Shown: piece after piece, positions 27,162-34,763 of the stretch
How positions within the stretch are numbered: position 1 is the stretch's first letter
Layout: every line of letters starts with the position of its first letter
DNA from: Eledone cirrhosa
Taxonomy: Eukaryota
Assembly: GCA_964016885.1 (NCBI GenBank)
Contig: OZ024752.1
Span: forward strand, 32,488,001-32,552,000
Direction: 5' to 3'
DNA: 64,000 bases
The notes under the pieces: generated by a model
What the model was told of the DNA's origin: nothing
Database searches by the model: none
The model's input: only the letters and a program-made list of their open reading frames with translations
Translations under genes and position numbers: made by a program

Positions 27162-27254
27162 ACATATTACATATGTTTCTCTATCGATCAGCTCGTGGCA
27201 AGATCTATTATAGATCGAACCTGACTCTGTAATAGAAAGGTGGTCAGATATGCT
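27162..27254 (-). ncRNA. Extended-stem-II hammerhead, family C (one core substitution)
   Basis: AGCATAT-CTGACcA-cctt-TCTAT-tacagag-TCAGgTTCG-ATCTAT(a)ATAGAT-..-CGAGCTGA-tcg-ATAGA-GAAA-CATATG-TA-ATATGTT. Confidence 0.65.
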
Positions 27255-28869
27255 TAGTATATGGGGATAGAGTCAGGACCGCGACGGCTGAGCTCCGGCC
27301 GTTTCGACAGCTAGATCTAAGTGTCGAGAACTCTGGTGCGTTATGGTCCACCTAGTATCTTACCACACTTTCTTTGTTATATATATATATATATAACGAA
27401 GGAGGTGTGGTAAGGAACCAGGTGGACCATAACGCACCAGAGTACTCAATACTTAGGGTAGTAGAGTGGGTAATAGTAAAATGTATGACCCCGACGGCAG
27501 AGCTCAAGCCGTTTCGACGGTTATTTCTGGAGTCCAGAAATAGCCGTTGAAACGGCTTGAGCTCTGCTGTCGGGGTCATACATTTTACTATGCGTGCGTG
27601 CGTGCGTGCGTGCGTGCGTGCGTGCGTGCGTGCGTGCGTGCGTGCGTGCGTGCGTGCGTGCGTGCGTAATTAAAGATGGTTTTCCGAAGCGGTTCGAGAG
27701 AAAAATCACAGTTAAACAAGATACTCGATGCATTAGAAGAGAATAAACATATTTATTAAATATAAAAATGACATACACATACACACATATATGAGTGTGG
27801 GTATGTATGTATGTATGTATACGCATTTATTTGTATATACAAATACAAGAAAAACTGATTTAATAGTCGTTGCATATCTTTGTAATGAAATATCTGTCTT
27901 GGAATATATCTGAAGACGTGTAAGCGCGTGTGTGTGTGTGCATGTACGTGTGCCTGTGTGGATGTGTGCGTACATTAGCCTCTGTGTGTGTATATGTGTA
28001 TATGTGTGTGTGTATGTGTATATGTGTCTGTGTGTGTGTGTGTGTACATTTGGCTCTCTGTGTGTGCGTCAATGTATAAACTAGTATGCGTGTTTCGATA
28101 TAGTTTTGCTGTGAAAATATAATAAATATATATTTTTCGAGGCAATGATAACATACCTGATCGAACAAATGATGGCTATTGCGCAGGTTGAATACAAAAT
28201 GCAGAATATACATGATTTTTCAAAGGAAATATGCACTGGAATTGATTTACCATTCCTTCTCCAGCAAAGCATGAAGTCTAAGAATGTCGTTGCCAGAAGC
28301 TCTACTACATGAATTCCATTAGAAAAACGATAGTGTGGATGGAATTTAAAATCAAGATACTGATGATAATGATGATGATGTTACTGACATTGTTGTTGTT
28401 GTTGGTGGTGTTGTTGTTGTTGTTGTTGGTGGTGGTGGTGTTGTTGTTGTATAGTCCTATCTCAACACGAACCACACACAGATAGGATCAAATCGATCCA
28501 GCCGTAAATAAGTTGTTGTTTTATAGATAATGTATTACTTTGTGTTGGTTTTGTAAAAAGAGAGGGCAGTGTAACCATAGAGACTTACTGCACATATATA
28601 ATTAGGACAATGGGATTGATGAGTTAATATCTGTATACAACAACTACAACGGTACGCGATGGGGCCCACCCACAGCCCCGGCGGACAGAATGGAGAAGGC
28701 GTTTCCCCGGAGGACTGTGGAATAAATTATGGAATGCGTCGTTCCGTTTTTAAGACGCTAAGTTGTGATTTGAGGGAGAATTCGGTTGTTATCTCTAGCA
28801 GATCAACCAGATATGTAGATGTTACGTCAGAGCTTCACTTACCACCAAGCTATATCGACTGGTGAGTCT

Positions 28870-29866
28870 ATCTCCCTATACTATCTTACATTTACTATAG
28901 CCTATCTCCCTATAATATAGTATGTCTATACTATATAACATACTATATCCTGTCTATACTATATCACATATACTATACTATATAACATATGCTATATCCT
29001 GTATAGTATATAACATATACTATACTATATCCTGTCTATACTATATAACATATACTATATACTATATTATGTATATACTATATAACATACACTATACTAT
29101 ATCATGTCTATACTATATAACATATTCTATACTATATCATGTCTATACTATATAACATATTCTATACTATATCATGTCTATACTATATAACATATTCTAT
29201 ATCCTGTCATACTTTATACTATATCCTGTCAATACTATATAACATATATACTATATAACATATACTATATATACTATATAACATATACTATATATACTAT
29301 ATAACATATATACTACATAACATATACTATATATACTATATAACATATACTATATATACTATATAACATATATACTATATAACATATATACTATATAACA
29401 TATACTATATATACTATATATACTATATAACATATACTATATATACTATATAACATATACTATATATACTATATAACATATACTATATATACTATATAAC
29501 ATATATACTACATAACATATACTATATATACTATATAACATATATACTATATAACATATACTATATATACTATATAACATATATACTATATATACTATAT
29601 AACATATATACTATATATACTATATAACATATATACTATATAACATATATACTATATACTATATATACTATATAACATATACTATATATACTATATAACA
29701 TATACTATATATACTATATAACATATATACTATATAACATATATACTATATAACATATACTATATATACTATATAACATATACTATATATACTATATAAC
29801 ATATATACTATATAACATATACTATATATACTATATAACATATATACTATATAACATATACTATAT
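28870..29866. repeat. AT-rich minisatellite (TACTATATAACATA variants)
   Basis: Direct reading. Confidence 0.93.
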
Positions 29867-29997
29867 CCAGTCTCAATTCAATATTTAGGTTTCGATTGTC
29901 AGTTGTTTTCATAAAGTTTCACATCAAAACGACTTCTGGGCAAAAATAGTTGGGTGTAGTTATGTTAGTGGATAGTTCGGGATATGGGAGTGTTTTG

Positions 29998-30141
29998 ATA
30001 ACATGGGATGAGGGGAGGATAACATGGGATGAGAGGAAGACAACATGGGATGAGGGGAAGACAACGTGGGATGAGAGGAAGACAACATGGGATGAGGGGA
30101 GGATAACATGGGATGAGGGGAAGACAACGTGGGATGAGAGG
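29998..30141. repeat. 21-bp minisatellite, about 7 copies
   Basis: acatgggatgaggggaggata and variants. Confidence 0.92.
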
Positions 30142-30259
30142 AGAGTGTCTGTAGTGCCTGAATGGAGGTAACATGAGACCAGCAAACTCCGAGAAGCAGA
30201 GACCATTGTAGTTGTGATAGCTGATACCAAGGACTTTGTTTCAGGGGGGGGGGGGGGGG

Positions 30260-30590
30260 GTACCTTGTGCCAAAAGTAGAAACAATTATTATTAAAATAA
30301 ATTACCAGTAATACACTGGGGTCGATATAATAAACTTTCCCTCCTCCCAAATTTGTTGGCCTTGTGCCTAAATCAGAAATCATTATTGATCAGAAGAAAG
30401 GGCAGTGGATTGGCAATATCGGTGGAGGGTGGGACGCCATGCTTTCCAGCATAGTTACGTCCCTTTACGATCTGAGTTCAAATCCCGCCGAGGTTGACTT
30501 TGCCTTTCATCCTTACGGGGGTCGATAAAATAAAGTACCAGTAACGCACTGGGTAATTGCTGGCCTTGTGCCTAAAGTAGAAACAATTAT
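30260..30590. mobile_element. SINE fragments and a full plus-strand copy (30405-30590) with TSD ttattgatcagaagaaa
   Basis: Consensus match and duplicated flank. Confidence 0.88.
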
Positions 30591-32200: not shown

Positions 32201-32781
32201 TGTATGTGTGTATATATATATATACACAAAAAAAAATTTTTTCTCCACACGCCACCTACACCCACAACACGCTTAAACCCCACACACACGTACTTTCCAC
32301 CACATATTTACACCCTCAGCCTCCTGATTCCTCTCCCCCCACCCCTCTATCCACACACGCACAGACACTCCGACCTACAACCCCCCCCCACACACACACA
32401 CACACCTCTTCCTGAACATGCAACCCCGTTCTTCCCCCAACCCTTACTTTCACATACACACACACACACACACACGTACACCTACACACACAGACCACCT
32501 TCAGCCCTCCCCGCTCGGACACCCCGTATCCCTCTCCCCACTCCACCCGCCACCACCCCTACACACCCCACACCCTTTACCACCTGTTTTACCCCACTTT
32601 TAATTTCAGTTTATTTTGATCATGCTTTTATATTTAAATTTATTTCATTCCTTGTATTTTGATCATGCTTTATTTTTATTATTATTTTTATTATTAATTT
32701 CATTCGCACCGTTTCCTTTCGTTATATGTCTCTCCACCACTCCCCTGCACACCCTTTGAACTCTGTTCCCACACACTTCTC

Positions 32782-32813
32782 ACCTGAGGAAGGGCTTATG
32801 CCCGAAACGTCGT
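32782..32813 (+). ncRNA. Penelope-type minimal hammerhead
   Basis: AC-CTGAGGA-a-GGGC(ttat)GCCC-GAAAC-GTC-GT. Stem III is reduced to a palindromic ACGT; aataaa at 32850; (TA)n at about 32905. Confidence 0.75.
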
Positions 32814-34394
32814 TCCCCACCAACACCCCACTCTCCAGAGCGTGAAATTAATAAACATTCGTTGTACTGCCTCTCTGTTTTGTTCCTGTTCATATTTTTC
32901 CATTATATATATATATATATATATATATATATATATATATATCCCCCTCTCCACCTTCACTCTCATCTCCTCCCCTTTTTTCATCCTTTCCACCCCCCCC
33001 CCCCTCCCTAAATAAAATATTTTTTCCTCGTACATATTTTTCCCTTCGTTAATTTTAAAATTCTTTTAATTTATACATTATCTTCCAACGGTTTTCAACC
33101 TCTCTATGTAAAACAATATATCTTCTCTCAGTTATAAAAACTATCTCTTTCTCTCTATCACCCATCTCTCCCTCTCCACCTTCACTCTCATCTCCTCCCC
33201 TTTTTCATCCTTTCCACCCCCCCCTCCCCTCTCTAAATAAAATATTTTTCCCAATATCACACATCAATCTAAAACTACTTTTCATATGTTGATTTAAAAC
33301 TGCACTATCCACAAGTGTTTTTTAGCCTTCATATCATGTCCTCCTGTTTTATCTGATGAAAACACAAATATTATTGCATGATGATGTTTGTTTTTGAAAT
33401 GCGCATAATAAAATACATGGAACTCCTTTAACCATCTTTTGATCTTATATATATATATATATATATATATATATAGATATATAGATATATATATGGATCT
33501 GTAACTCCTGATAGAGTCGTAGAGGCACCGTAGTGACATACAAATACTTTGAACGATTTAAACCTGGCGGAACACCCATGCCCTCATCATATCTGAATAC
33601 AGAGGATTTCTTCGAGAGAAAGAGAGGCAATGATAGAGGGGAGGGGTGAGAAAATGATAAAGAGGAAGTGAGAAAGAGACATAGAGAAAAATATTGGCCA
33701 CAGTACTAGACTGGCACTTTTTTTATCTAATTCGAAAGGATGTAAAGCAAAGTTGACCTCGACCGGATTTGAACTCAGAGAGCAGAGTACCAGTATTAAC
33801 ACTACAAAACACTATCAGACGTTCAACAGCTTAACACCATGATATTTCCTTGAACAAATCTGATTCTAGACACTTGTCTTCCGCAGGAGTCGGTATATTA
33901 TTAAAATTTACACATTAAATCCTGTTGAAAATGACTAGATGCTTTGTTATCGCTGGATCAATATAGAAAATCGATATCCAATAGATGACCTTAAAATACT
34001 AAAACGGAAAATCGATAATGTCTCTCGTTTCTACCGATATGTATTAAGCGAAAAATAAACAGTAGTTTTATGACAGCGTCGTAAAACAATATTGGTTGGT
34101 GTTGTAGGTTTTAGTTATACGTTGAAAACAGAAACGGTTAATATTGCTGAAAAATATTCTCTTGTTCGATAAAGATTTTCTATTATTTACCATGTTTCAC
34201 ACAAACATCTACATCTCTCTCTCTCTCTCTCTCTCTCTCTCTCTGTATATATATATATATATATATATATATATATATATATATATATATATATATATAT
34301 ATATATATATATGGTTACAATAAATGCGTCCCTAGGCGGTATGCCGTTTGAGCACTCGATGCTAGCGCAGAGCAGAGTATATTATAGATAACGA

Positions 34395-34628
34395 GGTGGA
34401 TTGGCAGAATCGGTAGAGGGTCGGACGCCATGCTAGGGCGGTGAATTGGCAGAATCGGTAGAGGGTCGGACGCCATGCTTTCCAGCATAGTTACGTCCCT
34501 TTACGATCTGAGTTCAAATCCCGCCGAGGTTGACTTTGCCTTTCATCCTTACGGGGTCGATAAAATAAAAGTACCAGTAATGCACTGGATAATTGCTGGC
34601 CTTGTGCCTAAAGTAGAAACAATTATTA
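34395..34628 (+). mobile_element. SINE with a duplicated 5' head, inserted into the family C fold-back
   Basis: TSD attatagataacgagg on both sides; the head ggcagaatcggtagagggtcggacgccatgct occurs twice. Confidence 0.9.
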
Positions 34629-34671
34629 TAGATAACGAGGAATCAGTAATGCATCGAAACACAATTTATTA

Positions 34672-34763
34672 ACATATTACATGTGTTTCTCCGACGATCA
34701 GCTCAAGGCAGGATTTATTATAAATCGAACCTGACTCTGCATTCGGAAGGTCCTCAAATATGT
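34672..34763 (-). ncRNA. Extended-stem-II hammerhead, family C (second copy), within palindrome 34625-34860
   Basis: ACATAT-tTGAGGA-cct-TCCGA-atgcagag-TCAGgttc-GATTTAT(a)ATAAATC-..-gagCTGA-tcg-TCGGA-GAAA-CAcaTG-TA-ATATGT. Confidence 0.65.

Follow-up and report, generated by a model that had tools for sequence, protein, structure and literature searches.

The function of the hammerhead ribozymes that are carried by Penelope-like elements (PLEs) is described as an open question (PMC8557442, PMC11167929; here and below, papers are cited for those parts of them that were available). The hammerhead of an Anolis PLE was reported to cut only in the presence of the element's own protein, while the uncut RNA serves as the template (PMC11167929), and a palindromic stem III is considered a mark of dimer cleavage (PMC4209133). 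The present work concerns a family of type I hammerheads in the octopus Eledone cirrhosa, whose genome of 3.0 Gb abounds in (TA)n and other simple repeats. The window analysed is a stretch of 64,000 nucleotides (assembly GCA_964016885.1, contig OZ024752.1, positions 32,488,001 to 32,552,000), in which an earlier note, made from the letters alone, had described two hammerheads with a branched insert in stem II. These two motifs, copies A and B, are very probably decayed, 5'-truncated members of the family, in which a Penelope-like hammerhead has a stem II with a real, selected and unbranched extension, a modest variation on a known arrangement. The whole account proposed here, to which we assign a probability of about 0.68, is that of the terminal hammerhead of a Hydra-clade PLE, which would cut in dimers when intact, with the loop of the arm as a control handle.

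The hammerhead family and its stem II arm

Seven DNA searches with successive variant seeds gave 440-2,449 first-look candidates each, with 40 scored, and a profile made from the loci of the seed searches yielded 300 distinct near-complete copies, 289 of which were placed in 14 subfamilies, a minimum number, the 11 singletons being excluded. Subfamilies I and J comprise a single copy each, that of J being decayed, and the consensuses of 13 subfamilies share 46-92% identity with one another (median 60%). In a background sample of 80 evenly spaced 10-kb stretches, 10 held a total of 15 near-complete copies, and the reversed sequence held none; roughly 56,000 copies are extrapolated from this genome-wide, a loose figure because the matches cluster and large contigs dominate the sample. 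The upstream sequence that copies have in common is short in most of them (median 35-60 nt, probably overestimated), the two alternative 3' ends are situated within (TA)n about 50 and 125 nt beyond the cut site, and a head-to-head inverted partner was found at 46 of 173 loci. One exact motif pattern had no match in metagenome contigs and none in viral contigs; about 1,000 matching contigs in each of three sequencing runs of unrecorded kind are uninformative on expression.

Core positions are given in the hammerhead numbering. Membership in the hammerhead class was judged at the level of the family by CUGANGA, GAAA, the pair A15.1-U16.1 and an NUH triplet, all of which are present, and a relaxed pattern of the intact hammerhead is satisfied by 208 of the 289 copies. 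CUGANGA stands in 10 of the 14 subfamily consensuses, in one of them (G2) with a 1-nt insertion, and core variants are fixed in whole subfamilies: U4C in C1, and U4C together with A6U in C2 and G1. Subfamilies C1, C2 and G1 (CCGACGA or CCGUCGA, e.g., 44254-44248 in the window and L317:1497-1592), as well as G2, were amplified despite their core changes. There are three helices with an open stem I, double changes being found in 4 of the 5 pairs of stem I and in 12 of the 17 pairs of stem II, with a stem III of 2 bp. Stem III is self-complementary (8/8 positions) in 12 of the 14 subfamilies through four different loops, and such a palindrome makes a dimer-type hammerhead likely; the intact form of the family is likewise predicted to be self-cutting. 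In most copies of seven subfamilies the hexamer AAUAAA (AUUAAA in subfamily A) occurs 6-8 nt past the cut, and in H it is found at 14 nt.

Stem II is one unbranched irregular hairpin that starts directly after A9. The spacing from A9 to GAAAC amounts to 58-63 nt in all 14 subfamilies, and the arm begins with an irregular base of 9 bp, followed by a short bulge on the 5' side, 3 pairs, a 2x1 loop, 2 pairs, a pyrimidine bulge and 3 more pairs, before an internal loop leads to the capping hairpin. RNAalifold gave a single unbranched arm, and the folds of every one of the 14 subfamilies show a single hairpin, a multiloop being present in 0-51 out of 1000 structures sampled. The branched insert of the earlier note is therefore abandoned. 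In the register directly after A9, 102 of 126 cells are paired across the 14 subfamilies versus 52 of 112 and 49 of 112 for registers slipped by 3 and by 4 (registers other than the A9-adjacent one pair 26-46% of their cells), which removes the extra CCU(U) that had been placed between the core and stem II. On 17 real copies, the whole corrected structure has 86.9% of 475 cells paired and double changes at 20 of its 28 pairs; not one of 500 shuffles reached it on any of five measures, and slid controls gave 25-35%. A tree-aware test on 13 consensuses, in which J was left out as a single decayed copy, counted 14.1 pair-keeping double changes versus 2.2 +/- 1.4 for re-paired columns (0/10,000), and 250 of 286 cells paired versus 177 +/- 10 in simulation.

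The pairing of the arm is under selection, with the covariation lying between subfamilies. The idea that individual genomic copies are subject to selection or to templated repair was also considered and rejected, since the double changes among such copies are without clear excess (4 vs 2.5 expected in A, 11 vs 6.5 in B); several of them are common to related copies or fall at CpG. The central motif of the arm, a 2x1 loop with a 1-nt bulge, is invariant at 9 of 20 positions in 13 subfamilies, whereas the base stem has 0 of 18 such positions and the cap 0 of 14. In the consensus of a kink-turn, a 3-nt bulge precedes tandem G.A and A.G pairs; on inspection, the motif lacks this combination of bulge and adjoining pairs and was rejected as a kink-turn.

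Copies and neighbouring repeats in the window

The features of the three copies that were found in the window are as follows.

27113-27263, minus strand: copy A, subfamily A, a 5'-truncated element end finishing in (TA)n
27248-27254, minus strand: 5' strand of stem I of copy A, 7 bp with 27161-27167
27241-27247, minus strand: core of copy A, CUGACCA, with a private G8C at 27242
27180-27240, minus strand: stem II arm of copy A, 61 nt, unbranched, with private breaks at 27234 and 27196
27240-27232 with 27188-27180, minus strand: 9-bp base of the arm of copy A
27229-27220 with 27198-27189, minus strand: conserved internal-loop motif of the arm of copy A
27216-27202, minus strand: capping hairpin of the arm of copy A
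27168-27179, minus strand: GAAAC, palindromic stem III (ACAUAUGU) and GUA triplet of copy A; predicted cut at 27168/27167
27155-27160, minus strand: hexamer of copy A, AUUAAA, 7 nt beyond the predicted cut (AAUAAA in other subfamilies)
34624-34765, minus strand: copy B, subfamily B, spanning stem I to the first 3' end
34751-34757, minus strand: core of copy B, UUGAGGA, with a private C3U at 34757
34690-34750, minus strand: stem II arm of copy B, 61 nt, with private changes at 34746, 34723 and 34715
34678-34689, minus strand: GAAAC, stem III and GUA of copy B, the palindrome broken by a private change at 34683; predicted cut at 34678/34677
34665-34670, minus strand: hexamer of copy B, AAUAAA, 7 nt beyond the predicted cut
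34778-34859, plus strand: inverted, more truncated partner of copy B, head-to-head, as is typical of Penelope-like insertions
34313-34396, minus strand: optional 3' tail of copy B, separated by an insertion of a short interspersed nuclear element (SINE) at 34397-34623
44100-44260, minus strand: third copy, subfamily C1, with its motif at 44254-44169
44254-44248, 44247-44188 and 44178-44176, minus strand: core CCGACGA, 60-nt arm and GUC triplet of the third copy
44027-44099, plus strand: inverted partial partner of the third copy

The earlier note, which did not mention the third copy and the inverted partial copies, was right on the position of both motifs, which lie on the minus strand, on the cores CUGACCA (27247-27241) and UUGAGGA (34757-34751) and on the complementary pentamers and heptamers it quoted. 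Its expectation that a consensus restores CUGANGA was borne out in 36 of 41 same-length copies of subfamily A and in 39 of 44 of subfamily B, these copies being selected by likeness to those of the window. An intact core is found in neither window copy, each carrying one private lesion, G8C in copy A and C3U in copy B, and neither copy itself would be predicted to cut; a change of the G8C type was reported to abolish cleavage (PMC11167929).

Copy A differs from its subfamily consensus at 5 positions, including G8C and the G>T at 27234 that creates TCTAT, and copy B at 6 positions, including C3U, the G>C at 34746 that creates TCCGA, two cap changes and the break of the stem III palindrome. The compensatory base of stem II therefore dissolves, as each of its pentamers requires a private change and the registers of the two differ; when the two slipped base stems were compared with shuffles by cells paired, 116 and 245 of 500 were as good. 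The compensatory inner hairpin fared no better, its double change being present in 1 of the 44 B copies with 0.36 expected by chance (each single change in 4 of 44). The pairs cited as compensatory are products of decay after insertion, and the gain of a register-slipping mutation by both copies is a coincidence for which we offer no further explanation. The idea of a structured domain under selection survives as to the pairing of stem II, with a length of 61 nt, not about 55, and the covariation sought on aligned copies is strong between subfamilies in the A9-adjacent register and no better than in shuffles in the registers of the note. Instead of an unfamiliar architecture, a Penelope-like (dimer) type I hammerhead with an elongated helix II is seen, and its junction is not new.

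Several other repeats were observed nearby. The 5' end of copy A adjoins a different repeat end at 27264-27590, which, like 16399-16598 and 2571-2730, has GAAAC, a long GC-rich stem III, GUC and nested perfect inverted repeats; the CUGANGA half was not seen in these three. Further type I hammerhead-like motifs in the window are found at 24958 (-), 37548 (-), 62176 (+) and 62091 (-), 33353 (+), 36994 (+) and 312 (+), with arms of 85, 65, 47, 36, 31 and 29 nt that are unrelated in sequence and fold as single hairpins. Outside it, L277:6996 (+) and L360:7448 (+) belong to a hammerhead family whose 96-97-nt arm has two hairpins and is possibly truly branched. At least two more families of short-armed hammerhead-like motifs are represented at 1068 (-), 9002 (-), 26021 (+), 8820 (-), 32784 (+) and 48992 (-).

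The SINE in the tail of copy B is flanked by a 17-bp duplication (34380-34396 and 34624-34640). A SINE of about 190 bp is situated at or near the first 3' end of the family in 7 of 289 copies (34397-34623 in the window; L025, L037, L048, L076, L279, L338), starting 58-69 nt into the stretch scanned, where about 1 is expected from 104 SINE hits in the 800-kb background; target duplications are seen at copy B and L025, and the SINE may share the AT-rich target or the endonuclease of the element. Tandem dimers and trimers of a 194-bp SINE occur at 23226-23612 and 45031-45605. The duplicated loci L002, L013, L014 and L016 carry, beside inverted subfamily B pairs, an open reading frame (ORF) of about 370 aa, the product of which resembles a galactosyltransferase.

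Parent element and role of the arm

The upstream walk from subfamily D leads through a 1.8-kb untranslated region (UTR) to a GIY-YIG endonuclease and a reverse transcriptase (RT). The near-complete element is about 5 kb long and has a single RT ORF with a C-terminal GIY-YIG; its ribozyme stands about 1.8 kb after the stop of the ORF, and one copy has a ribozyme at both ends, with the upstream cut site 165 nt before the start codon. The protein motifs, read in broken copies, are DKT, RWR (for RWK), YRDD, a CxCx5C linker, and CxxC and CxH around E and N, and by eye they match the Hydra-clade diagnostics and the published alignment (PMC8557442). Pfam gave GIY-YIG at E 0.0016, which is below the family cut-off, and no family in four fragments of the RT region, while the relatives found in protein searches show 28-46% identity. 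Terminal repeats, inverted truncated partners, a tail and (TA)n targets are present as in Hydra-clade PLEs, and subfamily D, as judged from its sequence, belongs to a PLE of this clade. The hammerhead family is likely to mark the terminal repeat of Hydra-clade Penelope-like retroelements. Mutual identity of A, B and D is 76-85% over the ribozyme and the tail (76-79% for A or B to D); subfamilies A and B would derive from elements related to D and may be non-autonomous. Among the A and B loci retrieved, none showed tandem units a few hundred bases in length.

Other parents were considered. A Naiad, which a 'half-core' annotation had suggested for subfamily D, was rejected by the C-terminal position of the endonuclease, the ORFs at L101 and L211 by a short hammerhead of their own, and the ORF at L049 by its position beyond a (TA)n junction. 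As separate observations, a 52-bp unit of the 3' UTR of the parent element is expanded to arrays of several kb in some copies (L139-L141), and at L149:311-1306 the parent ORF bears a long hydrophilic insertion (about 150-200 residues) after the RT thumb, absent from the rows compared of the published Hydra alignment (PMC8557442).

In the mechanism that we propose, two RNAs would pair through the palindromic stem III and then be cut after GUA or GUC. By such a cut, a transcript would lose the poly(A) hexamer that lies 6-8 nt downstream, and the upstream piece would keep the arm as its 3' end. The uncut RNA would be the template for copying, because the cut site is followed in the copies by another 50-125 nt before the (TA)n target is reached; genomic copies have no poly(A) tails, so this template would read through the hexamer. 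The two 3' ends and the read-through copies agree with the two reverse-transcription starts and the uncut template of the Anolis element (PMC11167929). The invariant internal loop of the arm would likely be a handle that controls cutting. Its bases are pairable and do not covary, which suggests recognition by a protein or by a second RNA contact. A binding site for the element's own protein is favoured because the sole PLE hammerhead tested together with its protein, that of Anolis, needs it for cutting (PMC11167929); this is the weakest step, and by analogy it is put forward tentatively.

A number of points weigh against this account. The structure was derived from the sequences on which it was also tested, which favours it somewhat, and the first pair of stem II is mismatched in 6 of the 14 subfamilies (G-C in 7). 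Three subfamilies have U4C, two of them also A6U, core changes of a type that reduces activity (PMC3088659), and the predicted folds of the full monomer often disfavour the active form. No ORF is linked to A or B, the shared upstream sequence of which stops about 700 nt away, and an exact pattern of the read-through tail had 3 matches, none leading into an ORF. Long stem II inserts are already present in the supplement of Craig et al. (PMC8557442). On inspection, other long-armed families of this genome are without such a motif, and it is therefore not a general requirement.

Among the alternatives, the arm may be a tolerated passenger, inserts being kept when they fold on themselves and leave the core intact, with the invariance due to shared ancestry. 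Among the 43 type I hits in 864 kb, which comprise the 800-kb sample and the window, 30 have arms of more than 30 nt (31-97 nt), of many lengths and unrelated sequences, with a filter that may undercount short arms, and reversed DNA gave none; frequent inverted duplications by the element could seed long arms. However, a length kept at 58-63 nt and nine invariant motif positions, despite complete turnover of the flanking helices, make such a passenger rather unlikely.

The arm may also be an RNA off-switch, in which UC(R)G(R)(Y), its invariant strand, binds C3-U4-G5-A6 of the core together with the two final bases of stem I, so that in the nascent RNA this anti-core pairing delays or blocks cleavage until the 3' strand of the arm or a protein displaces it. 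Such a switch would account for the non-covarying U-A and C-G pairs of the arm, and the anti-core helix is the best of about 1,800 non-native 6-nt windows in 13 subfamilies, with 0.92 of its positions paired and p = 0.01 in a test of 300 column permutations. It was, however, spotted by eye before testing, 4 of its 6 pairs use near-invariant bases, and about two independent double changes are left. On real copies it is 88% paired, equalled by 6 and 10 of 500 shuffles, but counts of such size arise from relatedness alone. Of 13 nascent chains 38-40 nt in length, 6 populate it above 0.5, but in full-length folds it stays below 0.05, bar one subfamily (0.5); moreover, it hardly occurs in C2, D, E, F, H and I and is broken at A6 in two subfamilies. 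Accordingly, the off-switch is regarded as unlikely. More doubtful still is a self-gated hammerhead, which the anti-core strand would silence during transcription and the element's protein would release through the handle of the arm; if it were true, the cut before the hexamer would decide between a tailed message, a template for copying and discard, and would supply PLE hammerheads with a regulatory role.

Natural hammerheads are sped up by contacts between loop I and loop II (PMC3088659), and the internal loop might replace this contact as a tertiary dock for stem I or for the A-rich stretch that follows, AAUAAA or AUUAAA being 6-8 nt beyond the cut in most subfamilies. Docking is, however, quite improbable: the motif is 12-17 bp away from the core, the hexamer lies 13-14 nt out across H and I with the arm unchanged, and no covarying pseudoknot came up between the arm and stem I's 3' strand. 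As to a branched domain on a 5-bp base of stem II, with CCU(U) between it and the core, that slipped register is indeed adopted by either window copy when it is folded by itself (pair probabilities 0.93-1.0), but the model fails across the family, rests on private mutations and is almost certainly wrong.

The control handle is the preferred reading. Since the family comprises 14 natural variants of a single design that covary clearly, keep one loop invariant and have their poly(A) hexamer in a fixed place, specific mutants can be selected. A gap in searches is exposed as well. Neither copy A nor an intact subfamily B copy was matched by the Rfam hammerhead models at E values up to 10, likely because the long arm defeats them, and long arms prevail among the type I hits counted above.

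Comparison with described systems

In the literature searched, the scope of which excluded most subscription papers, no published description of the arm was found. Metazoan non-LTR retrozymes (PMC7229834; bioRxiv 10.64898/2026.07.22.740005) likewise carry a type I hammerhead within non-coding repeats that have a high copy number and are related to the ends of PLEs; however, they are short tandem units, none of which were seen here, and subfamily D sits on a coding element. The PAc element (Poseidon, Anolis; Frangieh et al. 2024, PMC11167929) shares a ribozyme near the junction of the pseudo-long terminal repeat (pLTR) and the ORF, two 3' ends past the cut and AT-rich targets, but it is of another clade, its ribozyme overlaps the ORF start, and the parts of the paper covered show no long arm. 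The stem II of PLE-X1_sMoe (about 53 nt) and the Naiad 'HHR_half_core' with halves 35-50 nt apart (PMC8557442) have in common with the present family a long insert that escapes standard descriptors, whereas they come from plant elements or Naiads, are unrelated in sequence and, in the parts of the source available, are single consensus entries without covariation analysis.

The minimal hammerheads with a palindromic helix III in metazoan PLEs (Cervera and de la Pena 2014, PMC4209133) share the location in a terminal repeat and the mostly solo truncated copies, as well as a palindromic stem III that implies dimers, many consensus families per genome and a helix II larger than usual. However, their helix II has 6-8 bp with one unpaired 5' base, while here it has about 21 bp in five segments with no unpaired base; unlike those dimer-type hammerheads, the present family often lacks G10.1-C11.1.

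The Hydra-clade hammerheads (Craig et al. 2021, PMC8557442) are likewise of type I, with a short stem III, at the 3' end of an element with an RT plus, at the C terminus, a GIY-YIG, and the mismatched first pair of stem II is frequent among them too; (TA)n targets, inverted truncated partners, an optional tail and the matching protein motifs are also common to both. Hydra-clade elements are generally below 3 kb, in contrast to the subfamily D element of about 5 kb with its 1.8-kb 3' UTR. The hammerhead of Hydra-1_Obim, an octopus element already published, is short, and the present family is therefore a different one. All 26 Hydra rows in File S2 of that work, that of Hydra-1_Obim among them, have a short stem II with a loop of at most 10 nt, whereas the family described here carries an arm of 58-63 nt with a conserved internal loop.

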